Source: a virus
Lineage: Duplodnaviria > Caudoviricetes
DNA: 64,000 nucleotides
Virus record (IMG/VR): IMGVR_UViG_3300043499_000058
Location: 31 to 64,030 of that record
Strand: one strand, 5' to 3'
In this document: positions 1,638 through 44,546 of the stretch, in pieces
How positions within the stretch are numbered: position 1 is the first letter of the stretch
How the letters are laid out: each line of letters begins with the position of its first letter
The notes under the pieces: generated by a model
The model's input: only the letters and a program-made list of their open reading frames with translations
Told to the model about the DNA's origin: nothing
Databases searched by the model: none
Made by a program: the position numbers and the translations under genes

Positions 1638-2024
1638 TCACTTGCCTGAAATCGGCTTGGAATAGCCCTTTGTGACAACTTCGATAGCTGCCCTCCTGCG
1701 CTCACCCATGAGTGGCGCGAGCTTGTCAAGCAGCGGGAGAATGCCGACCCCACTGATTTTGATGTGGTAGGTGGTCGAATGCTTACGGTTGCGTGGAGTG
1801 ACAATGCTTGCCCTCGACGCGTCCAATAATGCAACCACCTTGTCGGCTATGTCCGCGTCCGTAGTTGTCACCTGAATCATCGGATACATACGTCCCGTCC
1901 GACCACGTTGCAATCGAAAGCAACCCTCACCTTCGAGGTACCCCGCGAGCCAATGCAAATCACGCACCGACAAACGGTGCGCATATGTCCGGCTCGGCCT
2001 TCCTGATCCGGGTCTAGCTGGCAC
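1638..2024 (-). mobile_element. free-standing single-motif LAGLIDADG homing endonuclease
   Basis: WLAGYLEGEGCF motif followed by the typical beta-strand pattern. Confidence 0.85.
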
Positions 2025-7683: not shown

Positions 7684-7712
7684 AGTTTACCAGCCCTGGG
7701 TCAATTACGCAA
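7684..7712 (-). promoter_or_regulatory. promoter TTGCGT-N17-TAAACT
   Basis: 17-nt spacer containing CCCAGGGCTG, shared with 11270-11298. Confidence 0.7.
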
Positions 7713-13279: not shown

Positions 13280-13498
13280 TCATGTTGTCACCCTGCGCTT
13301 GATCTTCTTGCGCTTCTGCCACTTGATCGCCGTGGCCCCGCTGATCAGCTTCGGCGCGCAACACTCGCCCACGTCAGCGTGGGCCGTGTAGTCAGCGTGC
13401 GTCTTGCGTGTGTTTTCACCGACCGGCGCAAGAAAAAGCTTGGCAACTACTCGCTCGCATGGTTTCTGACAAACATCGCAGGTACTACTCGTCGCCAT
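13280..13498 (-). CDS. small Cys-rich protein
   Basis: CDVC...ECC; start overlaps the displaced recA tail. Confidence 0.6.
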   Translation of the reverse strand: MATSSTCDVCQKPCERVVAKLFLAPVGENTRKTHADYTAHADVGECCAPKLISGATAIKWQKRKKIKRRVTT

Positions 13499-13556
13499 CG
13501 TCCTCGCCCTCCTCGTCGGCTTCCGGCGCGGAGATCGCCTTCGAGTTTTCAGTGAT
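13485..13556 (-). pseudogene. displaced original 3' end of recA
   Basis: translates ITENSKAISAPEADEEGEDDGDE*, aligning with the current RecA tail IQQNSLSISNPESEDDNESD*. Confidence 0.75.
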
Positions 13557-13948
13557 CAAGCCCATGCTGCCTTTCGTGCCAGGGCTTTCTCATTGAAAGG
13601 TTCAACCAACAGGTTGTCAGCGATTTGTTTTTCGATCTCGACAAATCGCTTGCACTTTGTCTGCGAAACAAAATACGGTCGAATTAGCGCGAACGCGGCG
13701 CGAGCTTGGTTGCCACTGACAACCCACTCCCACCTGTCCCGATGACGAATGTTCTTCGACTTCTTCATCGAAATCGAGCCGCCAAACATTTCACGCAATC
13801 GCTGAACAGGCTCAGGCTCACATTGGTTCAACGACAACCGAAGATGCAACGACTGAAATCCATCGCCTCGCACTCGCCCATAGAGAATGCTGACGCACCC
13901 CTCGCCTTCAAAAAAGCCCGCAGCCCAAGCAGCGTCAGTCGCTTTCAT
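13556..13948 (-). mobile_element. free-standing LAGLIDADG homing endonuclease
   Basis: AWAAGFFEGEGCV...FGGSI...WEWVVSG. Confidence 0.9.
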
Positions 13949-15020
13949 TGTCATCCTCACTTTCAGGATTCGATATTGACAAAGAATTCTGTTGGATCGC
14001 CCACACAAGCTCCTCGCGCATCTCGTCGTTGTCACGGAGATGCTTGCGGAACACAGACTCGGTGCCCTTCCACTCCTGGCCGTCCGAGTCCTCGTACGTG
14101 AACGTGTTACCTGACCTGACAATGAGCTTGTCCTCTAGGCCAAGGTGGATGATCTCGTACTCGGCGTCGATCAAGCTGCGCTCGTAGTCGTAGAGGAACA
14201 TCGACTCAAGCTCGGGCCTGGCCGTCTTTTGTTTTTCAGCCCGCACCGCGACCCAATGGCCAACCGGCACATCGACCGTCTGCACCTTGGCTCGCTTGAC
14301 TCGCTTACGTCCCTTTTTCATGCGGTCGAGCTTCTTGAATTCGATCCGCACCGACGCGTAATGCTTGAGCGCCCGACCCCCCGGCGTCGTCGTGCCACCA
14401 TAACCCGACACTTTGTCAATCAGTTGGTTCGTCCAGAGGATCAGGGTGTGGTCATTCTGCGCTGTGATACGTCGCAGCGCGCGAGACATCATCCGTGCCC
14501 GACCAGCGGTACGGTCGTCTCCCTCCTCCACATCCTTTTTCAGTTCCTCTTGTGGAAGCAGAGAGGCCACCGAGTCCACCATGACAACATCGGCGGGGTG
14601 GATGTCCTCCTCGGCATCTGCGATGACAAGAAGCTGCATGATCTTGATGAACTCCTCAGCCGTCTTGGGCCGATGGATCAGAAGCTCACCCAGGTTGCCC
14701 CCTAGATGCTCGAAGTACCGTTCATCGAACGATCCCTCAGAGTCCAAGAGCGCCACCGTTTCTCCACGCTGCTGCGCCCCCACCATTGTCATGCAGGCCA
14801 CGGTAGTCTTGCCGCCGTGGTAGTCACCGAACAGTTCGACGTGTCGGCCCCGAGGGAAACCACCCGCTGTGATCCGGTCGATGACAAGCGAACCGCTCGG
14901 TACGCGCTCGACCTTCCAACGCGGATGGGAAGCCAGTGACAAAACCTGGCTTCCCATCTGTCCGTTGACTCGATCCATGAGCGCCACCGTCCGAGAGCTA
15001 TTACGGCGAGCTTTTTTCAT
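13935..15020 (-). CDS. recA: RecA recombinase
   Basis: GGFPRGRHVELFG..GGKTT, VDSVASL, TPGGRALKHYASVRI. Confidence 0.95.
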   Translation of the reverse strand: MKKARRNSSRTVALMDRVNGQMGSQVLSLASHPRWKVERVPSGSLVIDRITAGGFPRGRHVELFGDYHGGKTTVACMTMVGAQQRGETVALLDSEGSFDERYFEHLGGNLGELLIHRPKTAEEFIKIMQLLVIADAEEDIHPADVVMVDSVASLLPQEELKKDVEEGDDRTAGRARMMSRALRRITAQNDHTLILWTNQLIDKVSGYGGTTTPGGRALKHYASVRIEFKKLDRMKKGRKRVKRAKVQTVDVPVGHWVAVRAEKQKTARPELESMFLYDYERSLIDAEYEIIHLGLEDKLIVRSGNTFTYEDSDGQEWKGTESVFRKHLRDNDEMREELVWAIQQNSLSISNPESEDDNESD

Positions 15021-30726: not shown

Positions 30727-31986
30727 TCAGGATTGAATGTTCTTGCCTGCGTTGTAGTTTTCAAGCACTTGGGCCGGGGTCAAGACTTCGTTGTAGAGCG
30801 CCACTTCATCGATGGGGCCGTTGAAAAACTCCCCGCCCGCCTGGTTCGCGCCGACGCGTGCAACGGTAGCGGTGTCTGTCAACACCTGCGGAGTGACAGC
30901 ACCCGTTCTGTCCACAGCGTTGATCCAGATTTTTGCGTTCACACCGTCATAGGTGACAACAAGGTGGTACACGGTGGCTGCGGTGAGCGCAATCGTGGAC
31001 ACGGCGATGTTGGCAACTGCTCGGCTCTGCAAGTAGACGCCGCCGCTGTCTGTGTAGAGAGACAACGTTCCGGTGCCCTTGTCATACAGACGACCGACCG
31101 CACCGCCCGAGTCCCCACGAACCCACATCTCAAGTGAAAACTGGTTGCCGACATTCAACTGCGCAGCGTGCGGGATTGTCATGTATTGAGTTGCACCGTC
31201 TAGGTCATACGCCGCTGTGTCGTCGTTGCCAGTAGCAACGAGGAGGCCCGGTGACGCAACTGCGGGTGGCGCACCGACCAGCGTGCCGTTGTTGCCATAG
31301 CCCGAGGCGTCATTCGCGTTTCCGTCCAAGCGGCTGTACCACACAGGTTGCTTGTTTCGTACCGTCCTGAAATAGCTCAGAGCATTCGCCTTGGAGTTGT
31401 CAATCGTGACTGCGATCCCGGCAGGTGTGACCCGTTGAAGCTCTTTCAGGAGTGACGGAATGTCAGGGGTAATCGAGCTTTTGATCCAGACCGCGTAGGC
31501 ATAGGCGCGAACGTCCTCGTAGACACGATACGCCCCGACCAGGCTAGACACCCCTGACAACATAGACAATCCGCCAGCCGAAAGCGACAAACCAGAGGGG
31601 GTGAATGACAACGCGTCACCAAACGTCGGCATGATAAACCCTTCGACAATCGATCTCACCCGAGATCGAGTGAATGGCCCGTACTGAAGCCGAGGCTTAA
31701 TGATCGCTCGACGTTGAGCGTCAGTCTTGCCAACCGGCGCAATCGGTACCCGAACGATGTCCTCCCACAAGCTCAGGTACTCGCTCGCCGTACTGACAAA
31801 CATCTCCTCCCCGAGATGATCAATCTCATCGATACACGACTGAACGATGTCCATGAGGACTTTTCGCGTCTGACCAAAGTTCGAGTCCTGGTTTTCAGGC
31901 CAGAGGCCAGGCGGCGAGAGTTCGATGAACGCGAGTTCCGCGTCCGTGTAGGTGCCCTCGGGGAGAAGTGTCGGCTGACCGATCAT
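30727..31986 (-). CDS. baseplate wedge (gpI/YmfQ-like) fused to a LamG domain
   Basis: LSLWE......RRAII; C-terminal FNGPIDEVALYNEVLT. Confidence 0.8.
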   Translation of the reverse strand: MIGQPTLLPEGTYTDAELAFIELSPPGLWPENQDSNFGQTRKVLMDIVQSCIDEIDHLGEEMFVSTASEYLSLWEDIVRVPIAPVGKTDAQRRAIIKPRLQYGPFTRSRVRSIVEGFIMPTFGDALSFTPSGLSLSAGGLSMLSGVSSLVGAYRVYEDVRAYAYAVWIKSSITPDIPSLLKELQRVTPAGIAVTIDNSKANALSYFRTVRNKQPVWYSRLDGNANDASGYGNNGTLVGAPPAVASPGLLVATGNDDTAAYDLDGATQYMTIPHAAQLNVGNQFSLEMWVRGDSGGAVGRLYDKGTGTLSLYTDSGGVYLQSRAVANIAVSTIALTAATVYHLVVTYDGVNAKIWINAVDRTGAVTPQVLTDTATVARVGANQAGGEFFNGPIDEVALYNEVLTPAQVLENYNAGKNIQS

Positions 31987-33401
31987 GTGACGGTGATCGT
32001 TCCCGGCACGCGCTTCTGCGTGGCCGTCGCTGTCTGATCAGTTGCCGGTGTGCTGACAACCACAGTAGCCACCCCTGGCAGACCGAAGATCGCATCGATG
32101 AGTCCTGCGATGTAGACGGTGCCGCCGACTGGAACGGCATTGATGTAGTCCGTGATCGCCTCCTGCACCGACGCGGTGACATCCGCGAGCAGATACCCAC
32201 CTGCCAGCGTGATCGCCACAGTGACATTCGTAGAAACCTGAGTGAACGTGGCCACGTGAATCGTGATGTTGGCAATGTCGCGCATTGTCAGGTCTGCGAG
32301 AACTGCCGCGATGACCCCGGCACTCGGGATCGATCCATTCGGCCCTGCGATCCTGACTGTGACATGCCCCGGTGTGGCGACGCCCACGTTGTCATTGTTG
32401 AACGCCGTGGCTGAGTCAACACCCTCGATGGCCTCGGCCCACGATTCGAGATCGGCCATCGAGCCGGTGCGCGGGTTGCGGATGAAATCGAGCAAGCGGG
32501 CACGGAATGTTTCCATGTCCTCCTCGTCCGTAGCCCCGGCGAACGTGGTGGTGTTTGTCACGTCCGTTACGCCGTCCGGCACCTGCACAAGCTCGCGGAT
32601 CGCGCCGATGACCGCGTTGTATGCCACCCCCGAGTCCTCGGACTCGCCTGCGACTGAAATCCGCTCGGCCGTTGACTCTACCACCGGCGCACCTACCAGC
32701 GCCGTATCGTTGTCAGTCCCGGTAGTGGTCACGTTGTTGGCGAACGTCGCGTTGAGCGCGTCCACGTTCTGCCACGCCCCACCGTTCAGACGCCGGTAGA
32801 GCTTCCTGGCAGTCGTGCCAGGGCCACCGGCAGCGACCACGGTGATTGTCGCCTGCTTGTTGATCGCCAACACCAGGGCATTCGACGCCGGGCCAATTTC
32901 AGTCTCCCCTGCTGCTGTGACAAACGAGTAAGCCCACTCGTACGTTCCCGCTGGCAGGGCACCTGCGCCACCGTCCGTTGCGACGGGCGCTGCGGGATCG
33001 CCAGGATTCGGGATCACCGAGTCGGCCGTTGTCAGGTAATAGAGAACATCACCCTCGCCTACGTCCACACCGACCATCGCGCCGGTCAAGATCGACGTGC
33101 CGCCAGCGCCAGTGAACATGAGCGTGCCAATCGCCTTGGTTCCCTGCTTTACTGACAAGCCGTACTGTTCGCCGTGACGACGAAGCTCGACAAGGTTCGC
33201 GGAAGTGACAAAGATGTTGTCCCGCTGAATTTGGTTGGCCAGGTACACGCCCTCCAATACCTCTGCCATGACTTCAGCGAAGATGCGAACGTTGCCGTCC
33301 TCCTCCACGTGGATGTCAGAGATGCGAGACTGGTATCGCTGAATGATGTCAGCGACGATCTGATCGCGGTTCCTGTAGATCACGTCAGCCTCTATCGGCA
33401 T
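31983..33401 (-). CDS. baseplate J-like protein
   Basis: G.AYN...GATDEED...RAR...GS..D...WA..IEGV. Confidence 0.9.
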   Translation of the reverse strand: MPIEADVIYRNRDQIVADIIQRYQSRISDIHVEEDGNVRIFAEVMAEVLEGVYLANQIQRDNIFVTSANLVELRRHGEQYGLSVKQGTKAIGTLMFTGAGGTSILTGAMVGVDVGEGDVLYYLTTADSVIPNPGDPAAPVATDGGAGALPAGTYEWAYSFVTAAGETEIGPASNALVLAINKQATITVVAAGGPGTTARKLYRRLNGGAWQNVDALNATFANNVTTTGTDNDTALVGAPVVESTAERISVAGESEDSGVAYNAVIGAIRELVQVPDGVTDVTNTTTFAGATDEEDMETFRARLLDFIRNPRTGSMADLESWAEAIEGVDSATAFNNDNVGVATPGHVTVRIAGPNGSIPSAGVIAAVLADLTMRDIANITIHVATFTQVSTNVTVAITLAGGYLLADVTASVQEAITDYINAVPVGGTVYIAGLIDAIFGLPGVATVVVSTPATDQTATATQKRVPGTITVT

Positions 33402-33796
33402 GACAATTCCTCTCCGAAGTAGTAGTCATGCGTCTCGATCAGAAGCGCGGCCCGTTCTCGCTTGACAATCAGCCAAGGAAACAGTTGATCAAGTACGTTA
33501 CGCGCATTGGCACCGTAGCATTGCCAACGCCAAGATTCCTTCTGCTCAGGTCGATTCGGCCGAAGCAGAACGACGCTGCCACATCCAGTGACAACTTGAA
33601 TGCGACGAATGATCTCCTCGTTTGTCATGGCAACTGCCATCGTGATCGCGCATCGCTGGTTTCGACGCTTGGTATCGAAGCACGTACCCTCGCCATCGAA
33701 TAGGCCCGCAAGCCAAGCGACCTCTATTTCAGACATCTCTCGGGCAGGAACACCCCGCGTCTTGCCGCCATTTCTAGTCCATACTTCGATTGGCAT
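33392..33796 (-). mobile_element. free-standing LAGLIDADG homing endonuclease
   Basis: AWLAGLFDGEGT...PWLIVKRERA. Confidence 0.9.
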
Positions 33797-33809
33797 TTGT
33801 CACCCCCTC

Positions 33810-34217
33810 CTAGATTGGAAGCTCGAACGTCAGGGACTCGCCCATTCGATCCTCGACGGGCACGCCTGCATCGCTCGACCTGATTGTGTAATCGATTCGC
33901 ATTTTCACTCCACCTATGCCTTCTTCTTCAACCACTACGTCTGTCAGTTCGATGTCGTCTGACATCGGGGCAAGCGCCTCGTCCACCATGAGCCGTAGCT
34001 CGCGCAGCACGCGGCCGCGAGGGAGACGTACAGCCTCCTCCAAGCGACTGCCGAGCGCGCCGTCTGATGGATCGAGCGCCCATGCCCGTCTGACAATTCT
34101 GAGACGAGTCCGAATTCGTTGTGCGATGACCTGTTCACCCTCGACACCCTGAAAGTCACGATTGCCACTGAAAAGCCAATCGCCGGTGACAGGATCGATT
34201 GCAAGATCGTATGCCAT
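33810..34217 (-). CDS. baseplate gp25/gpW-like protein
   Basis: IAQRIRTRL...W.LD...GSRL; gene position. Confidence 0.75.
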   Translation of the reverse strand: MAYDLAIDPVTGDWLFSGNRDFQGVEGEQVIAQRIRTRLRIVRRAWALDPSDGALGSRLEEAVRLPRGRVLRELRLMVDEALAPMSDDIELTDVVVEEEGIGGVKMRIDYTIRSSDAGVPVEDRMGESLTFELPI

Positions 34218-34226
34218 ACCGCCCTC

Positions 34227-34568
34227 CTAACCCACGTAGCTTCCAGCGCGTGACAAAACTGGCCCCAAGCACTTCGGCAAACGGCGACTACCCATCTGCC
34301 GCAGGACGACGACTAGCTCGCCCACCTTCGGGACTTCCGGTTCTATGAGCGCCGTCTTTTTGTCAACCCCTGTTGGTGTGGTGTCGTAGTAGGTGACAAT
34401 GTGTCGCAGGCCGACAATCGGGATCGCCTGGTCGCCATACTCCTTGAGCCAGACAAGTTTCTTTGTCACGTCTCGCTTGACCACTTTGCCGTAGGTGACT
34501 TCGTGCGGCGGAATGCCGCGCCGAATCTCCTCGAAGATCGCATCGTAGTCTCTGTCATTCAGCCCCAC
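34227..34568 (-). CDS. baseplate spike-like OB-fold protein
   Basis: PKVGELVVVL; located after the hub gene. Confidence 0.6.
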   Translation of the reverse strand: MGLNDRDYDAIFEEIRRGIPPHEVTYGKVVKRDVTKKLVWLKEYGDQAIPIVGLRHIVTYYDTTPTGVDKKTALIEPEVPKVGELVVVLRQMGSRRLPKCLGPVLSRAGSYVG

Positions 34569-34569
34569 G

Positions 34570-36801
34570 CTATCCCCCAAAGTCCGTGACAAATGGGATG
34601 TACCAATCGAACAGCCGTCTCGCGCCATAAAAGCTGTCGCGGTAGTACGGCGAGTTGAGCGGACTGATTTTCACCACGTCGCCTGTGTGCGGCGCGTGGA
34701 TGAAATGTCCGTCGTTCAGGTAGATGCCGACATGGTGGATGTCGCCTCCGCTGGCGAACAGTACCAAATCCCCTGAGATCAGGTTATCCTTGTTGACTTT
34801 TTTCAGCGAAGTGTTCGAGGCAATGCTGTACGTGGTCGGCCTGGACGAGTTGGCAAAGAGTCGGCGCGCGTCTCCACCGGCAGAGTTGGCACCGCCAATG
34901 ATGAGGCCCGAGCAGTCGAAGCTCGCAGGGCCGGAAGCTCCCCACTCATACGGCTTGCCGATCTGACGGATCAGGTAATTGACAAATTTGCGAGCATCGT
35001 CCGGTGCGTTGTTGGGCATCTTGACCGGAAAGCGTGCGCCAGTCGCGTCTGTGACAACAACATCGGTTTTGTCACCTTCAGGTACCGAGTTGCCAGACGC
35101 CTCGATGTCCTCTGTCAGCCCCCGATAGCGGGTGTTCCAGATTGCCTTGACCGAATCGCGGTACCTGACAGCCGCAGTACCCGCGCCATTGTACGCCTGC
35201 ACGCCGATCCAGATTTGATCCGGCTTCTGTGGATCAAGTCCTGACAACTTTCCGGCGAACGCTCGGGCGGCTGCGCGGATGTTTGCCTGCGGAATCCACC
35301 GGCCACCCTCGAACTCGTCACTCTTGCCGCCATAATCGTCAGCCCACTCCTTGTAGCCTCGCGTTGTCAGTTGAAATGGGCCAACTCCACGCTCACGGTC
35401 GAACGGGTTGCCAACGGTACCCGGCTGGTTTGCGAACTCGCGCCTCCATTGCTCGACCGCTGACATGCCCTGAGCAGCGCCAGGAGCGCCAGGAGCGCCC
35501 GTTCCGCTGCCAGACGTAGGTTTGGGGTACCATTCCGTGTCGCCGCTCTCAGGGACGTTTCTGAAGCTCGTCTCTTTGTCACAGATCGCAAGCAGAATCC
35601 CGAGGAAAAGATCGTAGGGCCAACCGTCGTGAAATTCCTGCGCGGCCGACGCGAACGAGTTGGCCCACCGGATGCCAGTCTGTCGCAGACCGGCTCCCAC
35701 ATCGCCCGGAAGGATGTCATCGGCAGGATCAGCTTCGAGAATCGGATCACTCGGGACGCGGCGCGAGATCGCGTAGTTCTTTTCACGCAGCCTGACTTCC
35801 TGAATGTACCCCTGCGGCCCGCCGATCAACCGAACGCCGACGATGAAAAAGATCCCATGCAGTCCCATGTCCGGCACGTTCAACTCGGCCATGTAGTTCT
35901 GCCTGACAAGTCGGCCGGTCGCCTCGAAGGGAATCGTCACTGACAATTCAAGCGCACCCACCTTGCCCTCGAAGATTTCCTCCCACGCCTCGACCAACGC
36001 TTCGCTGCGGTTCTTGGCGTCGGTTGAAGTGACAATCTTGATCGGGCGCTTTTTCCATGAACGCACGGAGGGGTCGGTGGCCTGAGCGACGAAACCGAGA
36101 TCGCCGCGCTCACCGAACACCCACACTTCCCCTGATCTGCGCTGCGTGTCCTTGGTGATTGTCACCTTCTCCACCGGAATCCATCCCTGCCGGGTCGCCG
36201 TCTTGGTCGGGATTCCAAAGAAGTAGGTCGGACTGACAGCGTAGTTCAGTTTGTCAGCGATCAGTGTGCCGTCCGGCTCCTGCCAAATCCACATCTTGCG
36301 ATTACGGTAGATGCGGTACCACGACTCCCAATACGACTCTGAGCCGTCGCGGTAGAACTTCTCTACACCTGTCACCCGAGCGAGCTTCATGCGCGTGAAC
36401 CCGAGCGCGCTGGCCTCGCCCTTGACAAACACGTCCGGCCGCAGCTTGCGGAACTCGCCAGGGGGTGCTTGTGAATCGGTCGCAACGGAGGAGATGTCAC
36501 GCCCCGCAATCGAGATCACGTGATCTTCGGACGAGTAGCTGACAACATCTGCGATCCCCGTTGAGAGATGCGTGACGTTCTTAGCTCGGGGAGAATCCGT
36601 GAAGATCGTAGCTCGAACCTCATTGTCACGATCCACCAGGAATTTCAGTTCAGGTGTCGGTGAACCGAGATCGATGCTGAACGAGTCCGAGTCTGAATCC
36701 ATCGCCGTGTCGATGGCAAACGCCTCGATGCTGGTCGATGGAAACTCCCGGTAGCCACGCCGACCGATTTCAGCCGTGATCAGGGCACGCACACTGATCA
36801 T
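34570..36801 (-). CDS. baseplate hub with lysozyme-like and NlpC/P60 domains
   Basis: hub N-terminus; KETSF..GPFQ..AYNG; GKPYEWG...FDCSG...HVGIY. Confidence 0.88.
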   Translation of the reverse strand: MISVRALITAEIGRRGYREFPSTSIEAFAIDTAMDSDSDSFSIDLGSPTPELKFLVDRDNEVRATIFTDSPRAKNVTHLSTGIADVVSYSSEDHVISIAGRDISSVATDSQAPPGEFRKLRPDVFVKGEASALGFTRMKLARVTGVEKFYRDGSESYWESWYRIYRNRKMWIWQEPDGTLIADKLNYAVSPTYFFGIPTKTATRQGWIPVEKVTITKDTQRRSGEVWVFGERGDLGFVAQATDPSVRSWKKRPIKIVTSTDAKNRSEALVEAWEEIFEGKVGALELSVTIPFEATGRLVRQNYMAELNVPDMGLHGIFFIVGVRLIGGPQGYIQEVRLREKNYAISRRVPSDPILEADPADDILPGDVGAGLRQTGIRWANSFASAAQEFHDGWPYDLFLGILLAICDKETSFRNVPESGDTEWYPKPTSGSGTGAPGAPGAAQGMSAVEQWRREFANQPGTVGNPFDRERGVGPFQLTTRGYKEWADDYGGKSDEFEGGRWIPQANIRAAARAFAGKLSGLDPQKPDQIWIGVQAYNGAGTAAVRYRDSVKAIWNTRYRGLTEDIEASGNSVPEGDKTDVVVTDATGARFPVKMPNNAPDDARKFVNYLIRQIGKPYEWGASGPASFDCSGLIIGGANSAGGDARRLFANSSRPTTYSIASNTSLKKVNKDNLISGDLVLFASGGDIHHVGIYLNDGHFIHAPHTGDVVKISPLNSPYYRDSFYGARRLFDWYIPFVTDFGG

Positions 36802-36992
36802 CGTGTGGCCTCGATGTGATCCTCGATCATTGAGATGGCTTTGTCAGTCACGTATTCGGCTGCAAAGAAACCGTCCGCGATCCTGTCGAATGCGGCAACG
36901 CGAAGCGGGAGCTTTTGGTTCGGGTACTTGCGCTCCCAAGCTCGAAAGGTCTGCGCGATTTTCACGTAGACGTTGTTTACCTTGCGCGCCAT
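36798..36992 (-). CDS. small hypothetical protein
   Basis: coupled ORF. Confidence 0.55.
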   Translation of the reverse strand: MARKVNNVYVKIAQTFRAWERKYPNQKLPLRVAAFDRIADGFFAAEYVTDKAISMIEDHIEATR

Positions 36993-36998
36993 TGTCAT

Positions 36999-37772
36999 CT
37001 AGTAGTAGACCACCGTGCCCACCGGCAGCCGGTAGTCAGGTGCTTTGTGCGACGGAATGTCTCGGGAGTCGAACCACTTTGCGTTCGCCCTGATCGCGTA
37101 AAGCTCTGTCCACCGTGCCCCGTTCCTGAAAACCGCGTACGCGATCTTCCGCAGCGTGTTCGACTGCGAGTTTGCTTTGAACTGTCGCGTACCCCTGCCC
37201 TTGCCGGTTGTGCCTCGCCCCTGATCCGGTTGCGTCGGCCCGGTGTTCGGTGCCTTCTTGCCGGTGCCTACCTTGACGACTGAAAACTGGTACTCGATGT
37301 CCATTGTCCGTTCGTCCTGAGCGTGGTTGAAAGTCTCACGCTCGGCAACGACGTACTGAAGGTTGGGGAGGATGCCAGGAAGGTGCAGGATCTTCCCGCG
37401 CTCGGGCGTGTCGGCGTAGAAGATCGCGCGCAACGCGTTCATGTTCTCCACGCTTGTCCAGCCGGGGAACGTTCCTGACAACGTGATCGTCGTCTCGGAC
37501 TTGTGCGTCACATCTACGTCAAGCTCGATTTCACCCAGGTACTTGTGACGCCCAAGCTCGGCCTGATCCTGAAGCTCGAACCCCTGCACCCCGAGCGGCC
37601 AGATGAAAGCCCGACCGCCAGGGATGGCAATGTACGGACGCGCAAAGTCGTCCTCGGGATCGAGCATGTACGCGGCTGTGTCAGTCGGTGACAAGTCCGT
37701 GTTGATTCCATGCCGCAGCGCCGGGGAGTCCGGTGGCCGATCCTCATTGTGTGGATACGGGATGTGAGCGAT
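36999..37772 (-). CDS. tail-tube initiator with C-terminal LysM-like domain (start ATC 37772 or TTG 37694)
   Basis: NTLRKIA.......RW..LY..N...L.VG; frame open up to 37772. Confidence 0.75.
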   Translation of the reverse strand: MAHIPYPHNEDRPPDSPALRHGINTDLSPTDTAAYMLDPEDDFARPYIAIPGGRAFIWPLGVQGFELQDQAELGRHKYLGEIELDVDVTHKSETTITLSGTFPGWTSVENMNALRAIFYADTPERGKILHLPGILPNLQYVVAERETFNHAQDERTMDIEYQFSVVKVGTGKKAPNTGPTQPDQGRGTTGKGRGTRQFKANSQSNTLRKIAYAVFRNGARWTELYAIRANAKWFDSRDIPSHKAPDYRLPVGTVVYY

Positions 37773-37774
37773 GG

Positions 37775-38185
37775 CTACTCACCTACTTTCATTTCAGCAA
37801 GCAACGCCCAATCGTAATTGTCAGTGGCAAACTGATCTTTGGGCTGAATTCGTCCTCGCACTCGTCGTTCCTGAAAAGCAATTGCGATGACTGCCTGATC
37901 GTGTTTTTCAACCAAATACGGAAGCAGTTGCCGCAGAACCTCAGCGGCGTCTTGTGTACAAACCGTCCACCACCATACATCCTGACTAGCTGGCCTCCTG
38001 ACGGTGCCACCGAACATCGACTGCAACTTGTCAAGTGCAATACGACGTTTTTGACTGACAACCAACTTGAGCACAAATCGAACACCGCTAGAGGTTGTCT
38101 TACACTTCGCCTTTGACAAAGAAACACATCCTTCGCCATCGATAAACCCCGCAGCCCAAGCAAGATCAGTTGGAATGTGAGTCAT
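37775..38185 (-). mobile_element. free-standing LAGLIDADG homing endonuclease
   Basis: AWAAGFIDGEGCV...PYLVEKHDQA. Confidence 0.92.
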
Positions 38186-38187
38186 TG

Positions 38188-40383
38188 TCACCTACCCCCT
38201 TGCGGCCCACGCCGCTGCGCTTTCTTTTGGCCTCGGAATCGCGGAGCGCCCTGCACGTTGTCAAGCTTGACCGGCAAGTAGGGTTCCTTGTTTGCGATGC
38301 GAAGCAGTTTGTCAAGATCCGCAGTCGGGACAAGGTGGACGGTGACGCCTGCCTCGCCCTGGATGTGAACACCGCCACCCCGACTCGGCCGTGCTGACAA
38401 TCCACGATCCAACCGCTTGAGCCGAGCTTCAGCCGTCGCCGCTGAGATGTACCGATGCGAAAACGCTGACAATACCTCTTGCTGATCGTCGGTCGGGCCT
38501 TCGTGGAATGACAATCCAGTAGCCCGAGTCGAACGACCGAGCTTTGCAAGGAACGGGAAGCCCTTTGGCACCCGGCGTGCATCGCCTGAAGCGATTGCTC
38601 GCCTTGTGAATTCGTCCTGAAGCTGCTGCGCCGCGATGGGGGTTCCCAAAAGCGCCGCCGTTGCCCCTGTCGCTTTCAGTCCAGTCGCCAGGTTCTTTCT
38701 GCTCCACAGCGGCACCACCGGAGGCTTAGTCGTGCCGCCGCCAGTACCCGTCCCTGTCGGTGCGCCAGGCATGAACCATGAGAGCGGATCGATGACAACC
38801 CAATACGGGTTCGAGCGCGAGCCTGAACGTGTTTGTCCTTCGCCTGTAGCTGAAAACGCCCCGAGTCCAGAACCGACGACTGACGCCGCCGCAAGCTGCG
38901 GTGCCCGCGTTGCGAGGCCAGGGAAACGGCCCATGATGTTTTTCAGGCCAGGGATGCGCGCTGCGCCCTTCCCGAGCATTCCGACGATCCCCGCGCCGAA
39001 GATCAGCCTAGAGGCCAACGCTGCCCCGCCTACGGCCCCCACAGCCCCCGTAACGGCCGACGGGTTCTGATCGGTAATCCAATCACCAATCCGGTTGATC
39101 TGCATGGCGATGGGCCGCAGCGCCGGGTCAGCACCGCGAGCAACTGTCAGGCCCACGTTGCGCTGAATCTGCCCAAGCTGCTGATACGCCCTTTGTCTGT
39201 TTCGCTGCTCGGCCATCTGCTTGCCAAGCTCCGCGTCTTTGGCTTTGTTGATCCCGTCAACGAATTTTTCAAGCGCCGGGATTCCACCCTGCGCCATGAG
39301 GTTGAGGAACTGCCTGAAAGATTCCTGACGGCCAAAGAGCTTCGAGGCCAATGTCAGGTTGATACCTGACGCACCCGAGCCAGCGATAGCCGCGTCGTCG
39401 TCCAAGCCCTCGACACCGAGCGCCATCGGGTTCGAGAAGCGAGCGCCATTCGGGGCTACCGCCTGCATCATCTTCTGAAGCACCTGAAAACCGCCAAGCG
39501 CGCGCAGTTGCGACGGGTCAGTTGGCAGACCGGCCTGCCGAAACGCTTTCATCTGATCGTCGGTCTGCGGCCGGATGATCTCGGACGCGAGCAACTGCGT
39601 CACGCCTCGACCGATGACAGCCGGTGAACCACCGGAGCGAGCCGCGAGTCCGTACACGGCCCAAATCTGCTCGGGGGTCATGCGCGATGCGGTCTGCGCG
39701 GCACCGAGTCGGCCAATGTCACGCGCGATGTCCTCACCGCGAACAGTAGGCGTCTCTTGCAGAACGCGAGCGATGATGTCACGCATACGTGCGCCCTGAG
39801 CGCCAATGTCACGCGGCGTACCGGGAGGGGTGGCACCGATGATCATTCCGGCGACACCACCGCCGAGCGCCTGCGGGTCTGCACCTTCCGCGAACATCGA
39901 GATTTCAGCCATCGTCTTTGCGTATTTGTCAAGCATGTTGAGTCCACGCTGACCACGTACGTCGTCACCGAACGATGAGTAGAAGCGGATCATGTGCTGC
40001 TGGATGTCATCGACGGCGATCCCGAATCGGTTGCTCAGGTCGATGGCGATGTCGCCAACCTGATTCAAGCCGCGCCCGAGACTTGTCAGTTTGCCGTTGG
40101 AATCGATCTCTCCCGCAAGCGCATCAATTTCACCCAGGCGGTCAAGGAACTGGCCGAGGCCACTGACAGCGGACGCTGTTGCGTACACCGTGGCCCCGGC
40201 CAGCGCGTATCTGATCGTCGTACCGACCGCGCGCATCTGCTGACCCCACAGCCCGAGGTTGCGCGTGTGCGAACGAACCTGCCGGTCGAAACCGACAAGC
40301 CCGCCGATGTTCCGCTCGATGTCAGCCCGAAGCTGCGCACCGTGCGAAGTCCAGATGAGATTAAGTCTGTAGTCAGACGACAC
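38188..40383 (-). CDS. tape measure protein
   Basis: 731 aa, Ala/Gly-rich helical, after the tail chaperones. Confidence 0.85.
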   Translation of the reverse strand: MSSDYRLNLIWTSHGAQLRADIERNIGGLVGFDRQVRSHTRNLGLWGQQMRAVGTTIRYALAGATVYATASAVSGLGQFLDRLGEIDALAGEIDSNGKLTSLGRGLNQVGDIAIDLSNRFGIAVDDIQQHMIRFYSSFGDDVRGQRGLNMLDKYAKTMAEISMFAEGADPQALGGGVAGMIIGATPPGTPRDIGAQGARMRDIIARVLQETPTVRGEDIARDIGRLGAAQTASRMTPEQIWAVYGLAARSGGSPAVIGRGVTQLLASEIIRPQTDDQMKAFRQAGLPTDPSQLRALGGFQVLQKMMQAVAPNGARFSNPMALGVEGLDDDAAIAGSGASGINLTLASKLFGRQESFRQFLNLMAQGGIPALEKFVDGINKAKDAELGKQMAEQRNRQRAYQQLGQIQRNVGLTVARGADPALRPIAMQINRIGDWITDQNPSAVTGAVGAVGGAALASRLIFGAGIVGMLGKGAARIPGLKNIMGRFPGLATRAPQLAAASVVGSGLGAFSATGEGQTRSGSRSNPYWVVIDPLSWFMPGAPTGTGTGGGTTKPPVVPLWSRKNLATGLKATGATAALLGTPIAAQQLQDEFTRRAIASGDARRVPKGFPFLAKLGRSTRATGLSFHEGPTDDQQEVLSAFSHRYISAATAEARLKRLDRGLSARPSRGGGVHIQGEAGVTVHLVPTADLDKLLRIANKEPYLPVKLDNVQGAPRFRGQKKAQRRGPQGGR

Positions 40384-40744
40384 TGAAAACCCTCGCTTCG
40401 ATAGCTTCGATTACCTCAAGCGCGCCTGCTCGTTTCAGGATCAGATGTGGAGTAATTCGTTTGAGGATTTTCAGGATGTCCTCACGTCGATTGACTGCAA
40501 GCACACGCATTTCCCGAGTGCCATATGCCTTCCGGCTTTGCTTGGCGATACGGCTCTGACAAACGATTCCGTTGACGTTCAGGAAGGTTTCCAACGCGTG
40601 AATTACGTCAGACGTTTTGTCAACCTGGCCCCAGGTGATCTGGAAATGGATTCGTTCCTTTTTGTCAACCCACCACAGGATCGAGCCATCACCGTCAGTG
40701 AAGCCCGCCACGTAAGCCCATGTCATCGGTTTTGCGCTACTCAC
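40373..40744 (-). mobile_element. free-standing LAGLIDADG homing endonuclease
   Basis: WAYVAGFTDGDGSI...PHLILKR. Confidence 0.92.
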
Positions 40745-41187
40745 TCAGGCTCCTTGTTGTCAGCCGCCGCGTAGCGTGCATCTTGCTCCGCGATGTTTGC
40801 TTCGGGATCGGCAAAGATGGCCTCGATCTCTCTGCGCCGGTCTGACTTCTCCTCCTCTGACAACGTTGCGAGATGGGAGACATCTTCGCCGGGGCGGTAG
40901 ACCTCATCCTTGAACCGATCTGCAAGCTCCTTCATCTCCTGGGGGTTGAACGGTTTGTGACAAACCTCGCAAGTGACAAGTCGTCCGTACGCTTCTGCTT
41001 CTAGCTCGTCTACACACCAAGGGTGGACGGCGGCTCGTCGCTCGTCCCAATCAATTTCAGTGTGGAGATAAGTGAGGGTGAGTTGTCCAGGGGTAGACCC
41101 GCCGGAAGGGTCATAAAGACTCCCTTTAGATGCCACCACGGTTTTCCAGAGAGAGCGTTCCAGTCGATTGTCACCAACGCTTTTTTT
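40741..41187 (-). CDS. tail assembly chaperone -1 frameshift extension (gpGT-like)
   Basis: -1 frame open from slippery A AAA AAA (41187-41181) to 40741. Confidence 0.75.
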   Translation of the reverse strand, partial: KKSVGDNRLERSLWKTVVASKGSLYDPSGGSTPGQLTLTYLHTEIDWDERRAAVHPWCVDELEAEAYGRLVTCEVCHKPFNPQEMKELADRFKDEVYRPGEDVSHLATLSEEEKSDRRREIEAIFADPEANIAEQDARYAAADNKEPE

Positions 41188-41606
41188 AGCTCGTCCAGCC
41201 TCTCGTCGTCCAACCCGTCGATGGCAGGCGAACTGAAATCGACCATGCGCTGATAGCACTCGCTCAGGTAGTTGATCTCGGTCGGCTCCAAGCCAACCTC
41301 GGGATCGAGCATCTGTTCGAGCGAATCGAACACGCGCCGTTCGTGATTGTCAGGATCGCGCAGGCAGTAGAGCAACGTGCAGACCTGCATGGTGCGATCC
41401 CGAAGATCGACGCCGTAAACGTTTTCAGGCGCAGGAATGTCTGCGGCCTGTTCGAGTGTCCACTGATACTCCTTCTCGATCAGCGGCACCATTGCGAAGC
41501 CGATGCTCGGTCTGTCAGGGAGAGTCACGTAGTCGGGCGCTTGCTGACCCATCCTGATCTTGGCGATCCGCCGACTCTCTTTCATCCTGTCAAGGATTTC
41601 ACTCAC
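41010..41606 (-). CDS. tail assembly chaperone (gpG-like)
   Basis: between tube and tape measure; slippery site. Confidence 0.8.
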   Translation of the reverse strand: MSEILDRMKESRRIAKIRMGQQAPDYVTLPDRPSIGFAMVPLIEKEYQWTLEQAADIPAPENVYGVDLRDRTMQVCTLLYCLRDPDNHERRVFDSLEQMLDPEVGLEPTEINYLSECYQRMVDFSSPAIDGLDDERLDELKKALVTIDWNALSGKPWWHLKGVFMTLPAGLPLDNSPSLISTLKLIGTSDEPPSTLGV

Positions 41607-41940
41607 GACTCATTCCGCCCTTCTTGATTGTCTGGATGTCAGCCGCCATCTCGGGTGTAGTCGTCGTGTCCCACCCGACCGGCAGCGCGTACAAGATCCG
41701 GTTGCAACAGTGTGTCTCAGCCCGGATGACAAACTCGCTGAGTTTGCCAGAGCCACCTGAACCAAGCTCCGTCACTTCGGGGTCGAGCTTCCCGCAGAAC
41801 GGACAAACAGGTGGCCCTGGCTCTGCCATGACAATCTGCTCCTCTTTCGCAAGAGTGAGCATCTGCTCAGTGGCCTCAGCGTTTCGTTCGACCGCCGCGA
41901 TGAGGCGATCCATTCGGTTGTCAGTCCCGCCCTTCTTCAT
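41599..41940 (-). CDS. Zn-ribbon protein
   Basis: CPFC...HCC. Confidence 0.6.
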   Translation of the reverse strand: MKKGGTDNRMDRLIAAVERNAEATEQMLTLAKEEQIVMAEPGPPVCPFCGKLDPEVTELGSGGSGKLSEFVIRAETHCCNRILYALPVGWDTTTTPEMAADIQTIKKGGMSRE

Positions 41941-41942
41941 CG

Positions 41943-42335
41943 CTAGTCCCTCACGTAGCCGGGAACGGAGATGTTGCAGTTGAGCGTCACCTGCTCCTGG
42001 CCGCTCTGGATGCGAATGAGCGTCCAGTTGCATCCCCGGTACACGTTGCGGTCGTCTCCGCGTCTTGTCATCGACTCGAAGTCCCGCAGCGTCTTGAGAC
42101 GACGCTCGTTGTTCATGCCCCTCGCCACGCCTCTTTTCAGGAGGATGGCCGAGAACGTAATCTCGTCCTCGTCTGCTCCGCGTACTGTGCGGAGGACAGG
42201 GCCATCGACGCCGAACGCTCCCTGAAAACGTACCTCCTGCCGGAACTCCTCCGTCATGTCTTGCGTTGCGGCGAAGTCCTCACCGGCAATGAAGATGCCG
42301 AGATCAGGTGCGTTGAGTGCTTCGAGCCAGGCCAC
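41943..42335 (-). CDS. tail tube protein
   Basis: 130 aa beta-rich protein downstream of the sheath. Confidence 0.75.
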   Translation of the reverse strand: MAWLEALNAPDLGIFIAGEDFAATQDMTEEFRQEVRFQGAFGVDGPVLRTVRGADEDEITFSAILLKRGVARGMNNERRLKTLRDFESMTRRGDDRNVYRGCNWTLIRIQSGQEQVTLNCNISVPGYVRD

Positions 42336-42336
42336 C

Positions 42337-42765
42337 CTAGCTCACCCCCTCGAACGAACGGGTAACGCGACCGTCCGTAATGGTTCCTTCCATGATTTCT
42401 GCCATCCTTTCTTCGATGTCCTCGACGGCCTTGATCGCCTCGTCGTTCTTGACAATCAGATACGGCAACATCGCATAGAGCATCTTGTAGACGTTTGCCA
42501 CACCATTGACAGCCAGAGCGAACGAGCCGCTATGACCCTTTTTCAAGCGATCAGGCCGATGATGGATTTCGACAGTCGCCTTGATTCCTTCGATTTCAAG
42601 GAAAGTGACAATGGCGTCAAGAACTTCTCGACGGTTCTGATAGATTTTCAGCCTACTTTGCCGCCGAATCGTTCCACGCGTCTGCCGACCAACACGGCAA
42701 TCCACACAGCCTTCGCCATCGAAGAATCCAGCGACGTAAGCCCATGAGATCGGCAACCATGCCAT
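42337..42765 (-). mobile_element. free-standing LAGLIDADG homing endonuclease
   Basis: WAYVAGFFDGEGCV...PYLIVKNDEA. Confidence 0.92.
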
Positions 42766-42783
42766 TGTCAGTTTCCTCCTCTC

Positions 42784-43902
42784 TTAGACCGGGATGACAA
42801 GCTGTGCGTCAACGAGGATCGTCTGGATGCCCCGGATGACCTCGCCCTTGTAGCTGACCGTGACAGACTTGTTGTCAGCCGACGGGATGATCGCCACACC
42901 GTAGCCAGCCGTTCCGTCAGGCTGCGTGAGTGGCTTGACCCAATTCGACCGCTCGGCAAGCAGCGCCTCGACACCGGCCTTGAGATCGTTCCGGTTTGTC
43001 AGGGTGTTGCCGCGACGAAGGAAGTTCTGCGTTTCCGCATAGTCCCTCACGTCGATGAAAAGCTGATCCACGATCAGCCTTGTCATCACAGCGTCGAACG
43101 TTGTGTCAGTCGTCCACGTGGTGCGAAGGTGCGCGATCTCCACGCCCCCATAGCGTCCACGCCGAAGCATGGAGACACCGCCCTGAAGCAGAGTCTCCAT
43201 GTCGTTGACGGCGACACCGGCCGTGACCTTGATCCTGAACATCGGCAAGCCGGTGGAATCGCGCTCGACATCCGTGAAGGCAGCGAGCCTCATGGTGTCC
43301 AGATCGTCTGACAAATCGCTGTTCTTGGCGACCTCTGCTGCTACAGCCGCAGCCGCGTACGCGCCCGTACGGAGTGTGCCGTTCTCGTCGTAGAAGCCAG
43401 GGGCAACGAGGACAGCCCGCTTGGAAGCGATGGCGGCAGCCGCCGTGATCAGGTTGGCCGACGAAGTTGCGTTCGCCATGCCGACAAAGGCCACCTGCTT
43501 GTTCTGGATCAGTTCTGCGTTTTCAGCCGAGTCCGCAAGTGCGACGAGATCGGCCTGGGTGATGGAGTCTGTCAGCCGGATACGCAAGTCCGGGTTGGCC
43601 TCTTGAATTGCCCACGCCGCCTGACGCTGCGGGAGAGTCGGCCCTGCGGCTGAGGCCGAGGCAACTGCCGTGACCTGGGGAACCCCGCGACCGAGAACGA
43701 ACCTGACAAGCAGGGCCAACGGTGACGCTGGCCCAAACAACGTGTCAGCCTCCGAAGGACGCGTGATGACAGCCGGGACGAGAATCGCCTGTGTGCCGCC
43801 CGCGTCCTTCTGCCCTTCGATCCCGATGGGGAGATAGAGCGCCTGTGAAAATCGCGGCCCGAGGCTAGTCGCGTCTTTGACTTCGGGGTACAACTGACTC
43901 AT
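42784..43902 (-). CDS. tail sheath protein
   Basis: LLQGGVS...RTT...TRLIVD; C-terminal I..I.V sheath pattern. Confidence 0.85.
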   Translation of the reverse strand: MSQLYPEVKDATSLGPRFSQALYLPIGIEGQKDAGGTQAILVPAVITRPSEADTLFGPASPLALLVRFVLGRGVPQVTAVASASAAGPTLPQRQAAWAIQEANPDLRIRLTDSITQADLVALADSAENAELIQNKQVAFVGMANATSSANLITAAAAIASKRAVLVAPGFYDENGTLRTGAYAAAAVAAEVAKNSDLSDDLDTMRLAAFTDVERDSTGLPMFRIKVTAGVAVNDMETLLQGGVSMLRRGRYGGVEIAHLRTTWTTDTTFDAVMTRLIVDQLFIDVRDYAETQNFLRRGNTLTNRNDLKAGVEALLAERSNWVKPLTQPDGTAGYGVAIIPSADNKSVTVSYKGEVIRGIQTILVDAQLVIPV

Positions 43903-43922
43903 GCTTTTTCACTCCTTCCGTG

Positions 43923-44546
43923 CTATATGGTTATTTCAAGAGTTTCATCGATTGTCAATCCCGGTTCCTGTTCCACACCGTCGATGAACTCGATGGGCGT
44001 TTTCTTTGTGCGAGAGTAGACCCGCACTCGAAGCTCCGCGTCAATGATCCTGAAAACAGGAAGATCGTTGATACGGTCTACCACGTGTTGACCACCTGAA
44101 AAAGAGAGAATTTCCACTCCGTCTGTCACCGCCATGCAGCGTTCGCGGGCCGACGGGCCGTTGAACAGGCGATCAAGGTCTTGGCGAGCTTCGAGTCTAG
44201 CAGAGGAACCGCCTGACTCCACACTTGCCCACACGCCTACGTTGATGTCTACTTCATGACAATGAGCCTCCCATTCCTCTACGGTACCTGCGATTTCATC
44301 GAACGCTTGATTCACTACGTTGTCACCAAACCCAAAGAACATCTGGCGCGGATCATCGATCTCGAAGTGGATGATCGTTGACTTGAATGGCATCTTTTTG
44401 GCGAGCGCGTCAGCGGGCGGGTACTCCATGATGACCTCGTACACCTGGGGCGTGTCGGTGACAAGATCGCCCATCTCACCAAGGATGTAGTCCCGCAGCG
44501 ACTCAGCGAGTGATGTGGCCCACTTGTCAGGATTGAAAGTTGTCAT
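43923..44546 (-). CDS. tail terminator / neck protein
   Basis: position before the sheath. Confidence 0.6.
   Translation of the reverse strand: MTTFNPDKWATSLAESLRDYILGEMGDLVTDTPQVYEVIMEYPPADALAKKMPFKSTIIHFEIDDPRQMFFGFGDNVVNQAFDEIAGTVEEWEAHCHEVDINVGVWASVESGGSSARLEARQDLDRLFNGPSARERCMAVTDGVEILSFSGGQHVVDRINDLPVFRIIDAELRVRVYSRTKKTPIEFIDGVEQEPGLTIDETLEITI

Follow-up and report, generated by a model that had tools for sequence, protein, structure and literature searches.

Introduction

Duplication of a host-gene terminus by an endonuclease gene is known from the 3' ends of genes in fungal mitochondria, where a free-standing endonuclease gene carries its own, differently coded copy of the terminus and no splicing is needed. 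Among phage enzymes, SegF and SegG belong to the GIY-YIG family, and SegB is likewise described as a GIY-YIG enzyme. The available portion of PMC2988022 describes intron-less homing of the free-standing T4 endonucleases SegF, SegG and MobE, the mobE gene specifying an HNH enzyme, and states that the starts of T4-type genes often overlap the upstream gene, for which translational coupling has been proposed. The same portion describes genes in pieces, such as mobE in nrdA of Aeromonas phage Aeh1 and mobA in T4 gene 39/60. This work concerns four open reading frames (ORFs) for LAGLIDADG endonucleases, designated HEG1 to HEG4, which lie at the 5' ends of tail genes in a 64,000-nucleotide (nt) stretch of a tailed-phage genome (positions 31 to 64,030 of the IMG/VR virus record IMGVR_UViG_3300043499_000058), hereafter called the window. 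These inserts are most probably ribozyme-free homing-endonuclease cassettes lodged inside the first three to five codons of conserved tail genes.

Like the fungal 3' type, the inserts of the window carry a diverged copy of the host-gene terminus, and they differ from it in being located at the 5' end, where they take the Shine-Dalgarno sequence (SD) and start codon of the host gene and must supply a new translation start, in residing in a tailed phage and in the presence of several cassettes in one tail operon. With the SegF, SegG and MobE type they share the lack of intron or intein and the location beside conserved genes; however, T4-type genes overlap the end of the upstream gene or split the host gene, and the available portion of PMC2988022 makes no mention of first codons that these genes hold in common with, or have copied from, their hosts. 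Genes in pieces, as presented there, resemble the inserts in that an endonuclease gene inside a coding region is tolerated without splicing, but their host protein is split and two polypeptides reassemble, whereas the hosts of HEG1 to HEG4 stay whole and the displaced codons are re-supplied. The 'N-terminal duplication' of Tremella mitochondria is, according to the accessible part of PMC7315562, a different arrangement consisting of intron-borne copies of downstream exons. Literature searches, from which subscription journals were largely excluded, returned no account of endonuclease genes that share the first codons of a phage gene.

Four Endonuclease Genes and Their Junctions with Tail Genes

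The presence of four endonuclease ORFs whose starts are shared with the tail genes downstream, first reported in an initial annotation of the window made from its sequence, is confirmed. All four ORFs with their starts, quoted codons and coordinates were found where that annotation placed them (Table 1), and each ORF opens with three to five codons of the tail gene that follows it, which has its own copy of them in partly different codons. HEG1 opens with ATG GCA TGG TTG (MAWL; 42754-42765), which is the native start of the tube gene, and the rebuilt copy differs from it at 4 of 12 nt, with both degenerate codons changed. The native tape-measure start, GTG AGT AGC (MSS; 40736-40744), forms the first three codons of HEG2, whose start overlaps the stop of the chaperone ORF upstream; the rebuilt start departs from the native one at 6 of 9 nt and has its serine codons changed from AGY to TCN. 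The first five codons of HEG3, ATG ACT CAC ATT CCA (MTHIP), are the native start of a gene of 257 amino acids (aa), which is rebuilt at 37772 as ATC GCT CAC ATC CCG (IAHIP), and those of HEG4, ATG CCA ATC GAA (MPIE; 33785-33796), are the native start of the baseplate J gene, in the rebuilt copy of which three of three degenerate codons are changed.

The distances from the upstream stop to the starts of HEG1 to HEG4 are 18, -1, 2 and 13 nt, respectively. On the other side, the first codon of the host gene follows the endonuclease stop after 1 nt (tube) or 2 nt (257-aa gene), or the two ORFs overlap by 11 nt (tape measure) or 10 nt (J), with the host gene in another reading frame than the endonuclease at three of the four junctions, the tube being the exception. 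The initial annotation had also noted a purine-rich SD for each restarted gene and a lack of space for a ribozyme, and both points hold: an SD-like run (GAGGGGG, GAGGG, AGGTGA and GGAGAGGA) lies 6-9 nt ahead of each restarted gene, and the ORFs fill the inserts, with spare sequence essentially nil. An Rfam scan of 31000-44000 at E<=1 returned no group I or group II intron and a single sub-threshold match to a xanthine riboswitch. The inserts are not inteins either, as each endonuclease ORF closes with a stop codon and its sole family matches are to LAGLIDADG.

When endonuclease starts were paired with downstream genes of other, unrelated loci (756 pairs), at least two residues after the start were shared in 20 pairs and at least three in none; the runs shared in the window comprise 3, 2 and 3 residues at the sites with canonical starts, plus HIP at the site with ATC. 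The G+C content is 0.50-0.53 across each insert versus about 0.60 in the flanks. Dips in G+C of 7-10 points at 33250-33700, 37750-38200, 40300-40750 and 42400-42700 match the four inserts.

Native Starts and Patchy Presence among Relatives

Alignment with insert-free relatives, which the initial annotation had proposed as a test, revealed the duplication that it predicted, with the endonuclease using the native SD and start, and the opposite outcome, an intergenic insertion without duplication, was not seen in these relatives. A complete 69-kb relative, G001, whose tube and J proteins are 79% and 64% identical to those of the window, is without all four inserts, and a search with HEG1 gave no match in it. 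Its sheath-tube junction reads aggaggactgacag ATG GCA TGG TTG GAA GGG CTC. In the window, aggaggaaactgaca ATG GCA TGG TTG is followed by the endonuclease and the tube gene opens with GTG GCC TGG CTC GAA GCA CTC. The empty tube site of G001, ATGGCATGGTTG followed by GAAGG, is thus identical at 12 of 12 positions to the first four codons of HEG1 and lies in the same SD context, and that of another relative, L012, reads ATGGCGTGGTTG followed by GAAGC. As the relatives' uninterrupted tube gene opens like HEG1 and runs straight on into the tube body, these alignments show that the upstream copy with its SD is native to the host and that the downstream copy arrived with the insert. In the whole window, TGACAATG on the minus strand occurs in 27 copies compared with 0.78 in shuffles, as a context just before start codons. 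Since this TGACA(A)ATG context is genome-wide, likeness upstream of the duplicated starts is no evidence of duplication.

The inserts occur sporadically, at one precise site each, among close relatives, as is typical of homing genes. The tube site is occupied in the window, in a second relative described below (G002), in L019 and in L037, and it is empty in L012, L013 (which is G001), L014/L015 (alike across the tube region), L016, L017, L018 and L038; in five of the loci L012-L018, all without an endonuclease between sheath and tube, the tube protein starts with (M/L)AWL. At the tape-measure site an insert is found in the window, G002 and L038, and none in L012, L013, L015 and L019. The site in the 257-aa gene is occupied in the window only, being empty in L012, L013, L015, L018, L019, L038 and G002; L017 was left out of this comparison because its upstream junction is not resolvable. 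Finally, the J site contains a LAGLIDADG gene in the window and an Endonuclease_7 gene in G002 and is empty in G001, L008, L015, L017 and L018. A split match to J in L017 was considered as a candidate insertion and rejected, as the J ORF there is simply longer (638 aa).

Empty Allele of HEG3 in the Probable Source Sample

The window is present in two soil-metagenome runs, X1 and X2, of one sample, which is its probable source, and Logan contigs of both runs were compared with positions 31500-43500. Between 43500 and 38172, HEG1 and HEG2 included, a 6,874-nt contig of X1 matches the window without a difference; it then jumps to 37758, whereby 413 nt are skipped. On the coding strand the joint reads ATG ACT CAC ATT CC/G TAT CCA CAC AAT, with 2 nt that fit either side of 37758/38172, and the gene restored in this way is intact, with a normal ATG and the N-terminus MTHIPYPHN. 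The occupied branch lies on a separate 413-nt contig with a depth of 5.9 as compared to 9.2-9.5 in the flanks, and the X2 contig crosses HEG3 without any difference. Occupied and empty alleles with exact borders were hence found within one population for HEG3 only.

Recurrence of the Layout and Recoding of the Duplicated Codons

The closest relative found, G002, is a 70.8-kb contig filed under an uncultured Acidobacteria metagenome-assembled genome, and its tube and tape-measure proteins are 90% and 76% identical to those of the window. At the tube site it contains a LAGLIDADG gene whose product is 46% identical to HEG1, with the left copy ATG GCA TGG TTG and the right copy ATC GCT TGG CTT, and at the tape-measure site an ortholog of HEG2 (87-88% identical) with the same junctions as in the window. 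Two further LAGLIDADG genes are inserted where the window is empty, namely at the W gene (left copy MAW, right copy MW) and at the sheath gene, where the window's start ATG AGT CAG TTG resembles the left copy of G002 (ATG AGC CAG TTG) and not the right one (ATG TCG CAA CTG), whereas the 257-aa gene of G002 is uninterrupted and begins ATG GCG CAC ATC CCG TAT. The J gene of G002 is preceded by a gene for a 144-aa Endonuclease_7 protein (PF02945, E 8.8e-18; L105 2916-3350, minus strand), with GTG CCA ATC GAA (MPIE) on the left and ATG CCG ATT GAA on the right, which sits at the identical J-gene codon as HEG4 of the window. Thus, the window and G002 were compared at six 5'-end sites and are occupied differently at five, namely those of the sheath, the tube, the 257-aa gene, W and J. 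The proposal that an element lodges a few codons inside a gene and takes over its SD and start is supported by the relatives and by the X1 allele, but the strategy is not specific to LAGLIDADG enzymes, as the Endonuclease_7 gene shows. This gene is comparable to the F-CphI-type Endonuclease VII homing endonucleases (PMC6083498) in being a free-standing phage Endonuclease_7 gene; terminal-codon sharing is not mentioned in the available part of that source.

The same layout was found in more distant phages, namely in L019 (tube; left ATG GCG TTT, right GTG GCC TTC), L038 (tape measure; left TTG AGT AGC, right GTG TCT TCG), L037 (tube; left ATG GCT TGG CTG, right ACG GCT TGG CTC) and, at an unrelated gene, L093. 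Of the 25 degenerate codons compared at ten junctions, 22 are not the same in both copies, 21 of these changes being synonymous and one altering the residue, with serine AGY-to-TCN switches at three sites. The first residues of the endonuclease track the host gene, with MAF/MAF in L019 and MAWL/MAWL elsewhere, and the enzymes of the tube site are mutual best matches, as are those of the tape-measure site. Seven close orthologs of HEG1, P0002-P0008, are 57-86% identical to it, of which P0002-P0007 open with MAW, MAS or MAY and P0008 with MNASW. At the 257-aa gene, the rebuilt copy (GCT CAC ATC CCG) is nearer to the native start of G002 (GCG CAC ATC CCG) than to the left copy of the window, and the codon differences may, judging from the sequences, have been inherited from an earlier host and not selected one by one.

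Two variants of the arrangement were observed. In L037 (153-899), a single 248-aa ORF runs through two LAGLIDADG domains uninterrupted by a stop; the first opens with MAWL and the second, of the tube-site lineage, with MAPLAMTK. The appearance is that of a nested insertion in which two single-motif enzymes became one enzyme with two domains. In L022 (3815-4520), the endonuclease ORF contains ...VPCEFTCGVAGSWAYVAGF, and ...VPCEFTSGAAGTGKT is found about 22 codons into the P-loop gene behind it, as if a longer stretch of the 5' end had been re-supplied.

Family and Predicted Fold of the Endonucleases

Each ORF encodes one LAGLIDADG motif with the acidic end kept, GFFDGEG, GFTDGDG, GFIDGEG and GLFDGEG in HEG1 to HEG4, respectively, the final acidic residue of this motif being the catalytic one. 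In Pfam, HEG1 matches LAGLIDADG_3 (29.7 bits, cut-off 22.5), HEG3 matches LAGLIDADG_1 (38.2 bits, cut-off 23.1) and HEG4 reaches the LAGLIDADG_3 cut-off exactly (22.5 bits, cut-off 22.5). HEG2 scores 20.4 bits, under the cut-off of 23.1, and has the GFTDGDG motif and 33-34% identity to HEG1.

A profile search of HEG1 and six orthologs against the PDB matched I-CreI, I-MsoI and I-CvuI across residues 10-120. The AlphaFold model of HEG1 (mean predicted local distance difference test score, pLDDT, 79.4) has the element order alpha-beta-beta-alpha-beta-beta-alpha, with helices at residues 8-18, 46-58 and 89-102 and two strands between each pair, and the borrowed residues 1-7 fall outside the first helix. 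The top Foldseek matches of this model were I-CvuI and I-CreI, with probability 1.00, template-modelling (TM) scores of 0.54-0.60 and 16-22% identity. When two copies of HEG1 were modelled together, the score was 0.65 compared with 0.08 for the best of three controls, with an interface formed by residues 9-18 of the motif helix; at least 78% of contacts agreed between runs and the partner pLDDT was at least 75. Of proteins with solved structures, 20 of the 30 that form pairs of one chain passed the same mark, as did 1 of the 23 that are single chains. HEG1 is therefore modelled as an I-CreI-like homodimer held through the motif helix, and the two-copy result may reflect likeness to solved I-CreI dimers only. 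In summary, likeness to I-CreI, I-CvuI and I-MsoI extends to the motif, the fold order, a conserved lysine region and the modelled dimer via the LAGLIDADG helix. These three enzymes, however, come from group I introns located in rRNA genes; HEG1 to HEG4 are free-standing in phage structural genes and are shorter (123-142 aa) than I-CreI-type enzymes.

Proposed Mechanism and Its Weak Points

From the architecture of the junctions we infer the following scheme. The cassette consists of the endonuclease body, its stop codon and a second, recoded host start comprising SD, start codon and the first few codons. The endonuclease would be read from the native SD and start of the host gene, whose first residues would become an unstructured N-terminal tag on the enzyme, and the host gene would be translated separately from the rebuilt start; with this start 1-4 nt past the endonuclease stop or overlapping it, translational coupling is probable. 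When a relative without the cassette infects the same cell, an I-CreI-like homodimer would cut its uninterrupted allele across the insertion point, and repair from the occupied genome would copy the cassette into the cut allele. The codon differences between the copies would destroy the recognition site in the occupied allele and thereby confer resistance to cleavage, keep direct repeats from giving rise to deletions, and guide the invading strand to the copy ahead of the endonuclease and away from the wrong copy. Under this scheme, homing would also be active today.

Several observations weigh against this scheme. Cleavage, its target, translation and the absence of splicing are all inferred. 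When a stretch of +/-8 nt around the junction was examined for two-fold symmetry, the four reconstructed empty sites scored 5-6 matches out of 11 at best, no better than random windows (null P(>=6) of 0.46), a result that speaks neither for nor against the scheme. The empty HEG3 allele comes from one contig of one run of the probable source sample and extends 28 nt beyond the joint, under a 30-nt warning mark, and no empty allele was found for HEG1, HEG2 or HEG4 in Logan contigs, which drop rare variants. Among distant homologues the layout is a minority: by a strict test 5 of 28 scored loci share at least two residues, and by a loose test 4 of 56 loci share at least three, with a null of 22/3080. 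In L093, where the host gene is unrelated, the start changes from ATG to GTG and the following codons GGA TGT GAC are unchanged, so that the duplicated codons are not recoded beyond the start. Finally, three rebuilt starts are non-standard, namely ATC in the 257-aa gene of the window (37772), ATC in the tube gene of G002 (L104 6001) and ACG in the tube gene of L037 (904-906), which is awkward for essential, abundant proteins.

Concerning these starts, the rebuilt copies in the window have usual start codons at the tube (GTG), the tape measure (GTG) and J (ATG), but the third gene has ATC, which counts against a simple new start there. Each of the ATC and ACG starts lies 2-4 nt past the endonuclease stop, behind a good SD. 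The frame of the 257-aa gene has no ATG, GTG or TTG before 37694, where TTG is the first usual start. Downstream of the ATC the encoded residues are conserved in L012, L013 and G002, and in these relatives they therefore belong to a coding sequence. The ATC and ACG codons might initiate translation, perhaps by reinitiation only. Entry into the 257-aa gene through a frameshift from HEG3 was rejected as an explanation, since a TGA two codons before the ATC closes the frame and no slippery context is present. As a tentative suggestion, to which less than even weight is given, the nearness of the rebuilt start to the endonuclease stop and the ATC or ACG in three elements may mean that the cassette holds the translation of the host gene hostage, such that the essential tail protein is made mainly by ribosomes that have just left the endonuclease. 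Decay of the endonuclease by nonsense or frameshift mutations would then starve the phage of tail protein, and the selfish gene would be preserved by purifying selection acting on its host gene.

Alternative Explanations

The best of the rival explanations, although an unlikely one, considers the cassettes as fossils, with endonucleases that are inactive or domesticated and a layout that persists as a scar kept by dependence on the rebuilt starts; it may apply to individual elements. HEG2 with its score under the Pfam cut-off, the lack of empty alleles for HEG1, HEG2 and HEG4 among Logan contigs, and the divergence of the G002 ortholog of HEG2, which is about that of the flanking genes (87-88% vs 75-90%), fit such a state. 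However, all ORFs are intact with the acidic residue of the motif kept, the tube-site enzymes of the window and G002 are 46% identical while their tube proteins are 90% identical, and the differing occupancy at five of six sites between such close relatives together with the polymorphism of HEG3 within one sample argue for recent movement.

Excision of the inserts from mRNA by an unrecognised self-splicing or host-dependent intron, with the tail proteins made from the native start and the downstream copy serving as no working start, is very improbable. It is attractive in that removal of the sequence from the end of the left copy to the end of the right copy yields exactly the same protein, and in that three right copies have ATC or ACG, as though a start codon were unneeded. 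Yet the inserts are 361-430 nt long, filled with ORF and without an Rfam intron match, and an intron needs neither an SD at 6-9 nt nor a synonymous copy of the first codons, both of which are kept in ten junctions and hardly differ between HEG2 and its ortholog in G002; moreover, the unrelated Endonuclease_7 gene has the same layout.

That the inserts are ordinary intergenic free-standing genes which share residues by chance or by choice of start codon can be set aside, as the short runs (2-4 residues) and the genome-wide TGACA(A)ATG context leave room for coincidence in principle, but shared runs of at least three residues are absent from the 756 null pairs and those of at least two are few, the deletion in X1 restores the frame to the base, and chance is excluded by the empty sites of relatives, whose uninterrupted genes open with exactly the first codons of the endonuclease.

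Tail Module and Other Nuclease Genes of the Window

The window is nearly the whole of the IMG/VR record (64,030 bases; estimated completeness 90%). Neither the 13-kb region (megablast) nor the tube protein (tblastn) matched the GenBank phage collection, and the sheath protein and HEG4 as queries against viral contigs found no relatives. The four inserts lie in a contractile-tail module encoded on the minus strand in the order sheath, 130-aa putative tube, chaperone-like ORFs, 731-aa tape measure, 257-aa gene, 743-aa hub with a peptidase domain, gp25/W-like wedge, baseplate J and a J-adjacent wedge protein. Concerning the tail functions assigned in the initial annotation, that of baseplate J has a Pfam match (Table 1). 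The label 'LysM initiator' is weaker than was claimed, as the 257-aa gene matches no Pfam or PHROG family. The label 'tail tube' is weaker as well, as it rests on the place of the gene after the sheath, itself identified by a PHROG tail-sheath match (E 1.2e-8); the putative tube is 79-90% identical to genes placed after the sheath in G001 and G002. The tape measure scores 20.9 bits with PhageMin_Tail, under the Pfam cut-off of 33.2.

Table 1. Coordinates of inserts, rebuilt starts, host genes and additional endonuclease genes in the window
Feature	Position	Strand	Remarks
HEG1, 142 aa	42337..42765	-	LAGLIDADG ORF before tube
Rebuilt tube 5' end	42324..42351	-	SD-like GAGGGGG 42345-42351, HEG1 stop TAG, 1 nt, GTG GCC TGG CTC 42324-42335
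Putative tail tube gene, 130 aa	41943..42335	-	Restarted at GTG 42335
HEG2, 123 aa	40373..40744	-	LAGLIDADG ORF before tape measure
Rebuilt tape-measure start GTG TCG TCT (MSS)	40375..40383	-	Within last codons of HEG2; HEG2 stop 40373-40375
Tape measure gene, 731 aa	38188..40383	-	Assigned by size and position
HEG3, 136 aa	37775..38185	-	LAGLIDADG ORF before 257-aa gene; ATG at 38185
Presence/absence unit, 413 nt	37759..38171	-	HEG3 body, stop and rebuilt ATC GCT CAC ATC CC
257-aa tail gene, between tape measure and hub	36999..37772	-	Frame opens at ATC 37772 in occupied allele
HEG4, 134 aa	33392..33796	-	LAGLIDADG ORF before baseplate J
Rebuilt J start ATG CCG ATA GAG (MPIE)	33390..33401	-	Overlaps last codons and stop (33392-33394) of HEG4
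Baseplate J gene, 472 aa	31983..33401	-	Pfam Baseplate_J 115.3 bits
HEG5 element, 3'-end mirror type	13485..13954	-	HEG5 13556-13954, start within last codons of RecA-like gene
HEG6, sixth LAGLIDADG ORF	1638..2024	-	Start 11 nt inside upstream 140-aa gene; absent from G001

Besides the 5'-end inserts, the window contains an element of the mirror type, HEG5, at the 3' end of a RecA-like gene (Table 1). The RecA-like gene now closes with a replacement tail, and its old tail (ITENSKAISAPEADEEGEDD...) is a dead remnant behind HEG5, at about 13485-13556, which overlaps the start of a 72-aa gene. The match to the old tail has a local score of 50 compared with 22 +/- 4 in shuffles, of which 0 of 2000 reach 50, and in G001, which is without HEG5, the two flanking genes abut. 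In G002, a gene designated HEG-a reads in frame into the native C-terminus VGLRLVKTERPTDG and supplies the recoded VGLRLVKTERPTG to the host gene. The downstream displacement of an old C-terminus that characterises the 3' type was thus found for HEG5 and HEG-a, and not for HEG1 to HEG4.

Further nuclease genes at gene ends were noted. In two relatives (L104 2250-2714 and L018 7064-7552), one and the same head-tail gene has a LAGLIDADG gene inserted at its 3' end, and the one in L104 reads in frame into the native C-terminus, with nearly all codons of the replacement copy recoded. For HEG6, terminal-codon sharing is too weak to call, and a conserved promoter-like site, TTGACA-17-TACTGT, follows the gene. 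A 131-aa ORF at 7705-8100 with a weak match to HNH_3 (19.4 bits, cut-off 24.8) ends with ...TREEELA, and the RuvC-like gene directly upstream ends with ...TREDEVA, which looks like the 3'-end trick performed by a third nuclease family.

Biological Significance

Sharing the terminal codons of a gene and re-supplying them would provide homing endonucleases with a third route, besides introns and inteins, to reside inside essential coding sequence, and the arrangement is the 5' mirror, in tailed phages, of the terminus duplications that fungal mitochondrial genes have at their 3' ends. As many as six sites of a single tail operon are used in this manner, and two unrelated nuclease families have settled at one of them. 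Since the left copy joined to the gene body equals the empty site, the likely target of the meganuclease can be read from the occupied genome alone, which would be useful for enzyme discovery. For annotation, the finding implies that small ORFs steal the apparent start of structural genes, whose true start may be GTG, ATC or ACG, and the ATC and ACG starts would constitute a natural system for the study of termination-reinitiation at non-standard codons. Should the cassettes indeed hold the translation of their host genes hostage, the usual cycle of invasion, decay and loss would be broken, and, together with the 3'-end twins and the Endonuclease VII and HNH cases, this would amount to a colonisation of either gene end that is independent of the nuclease family and requires neither ribozyme nor intein.

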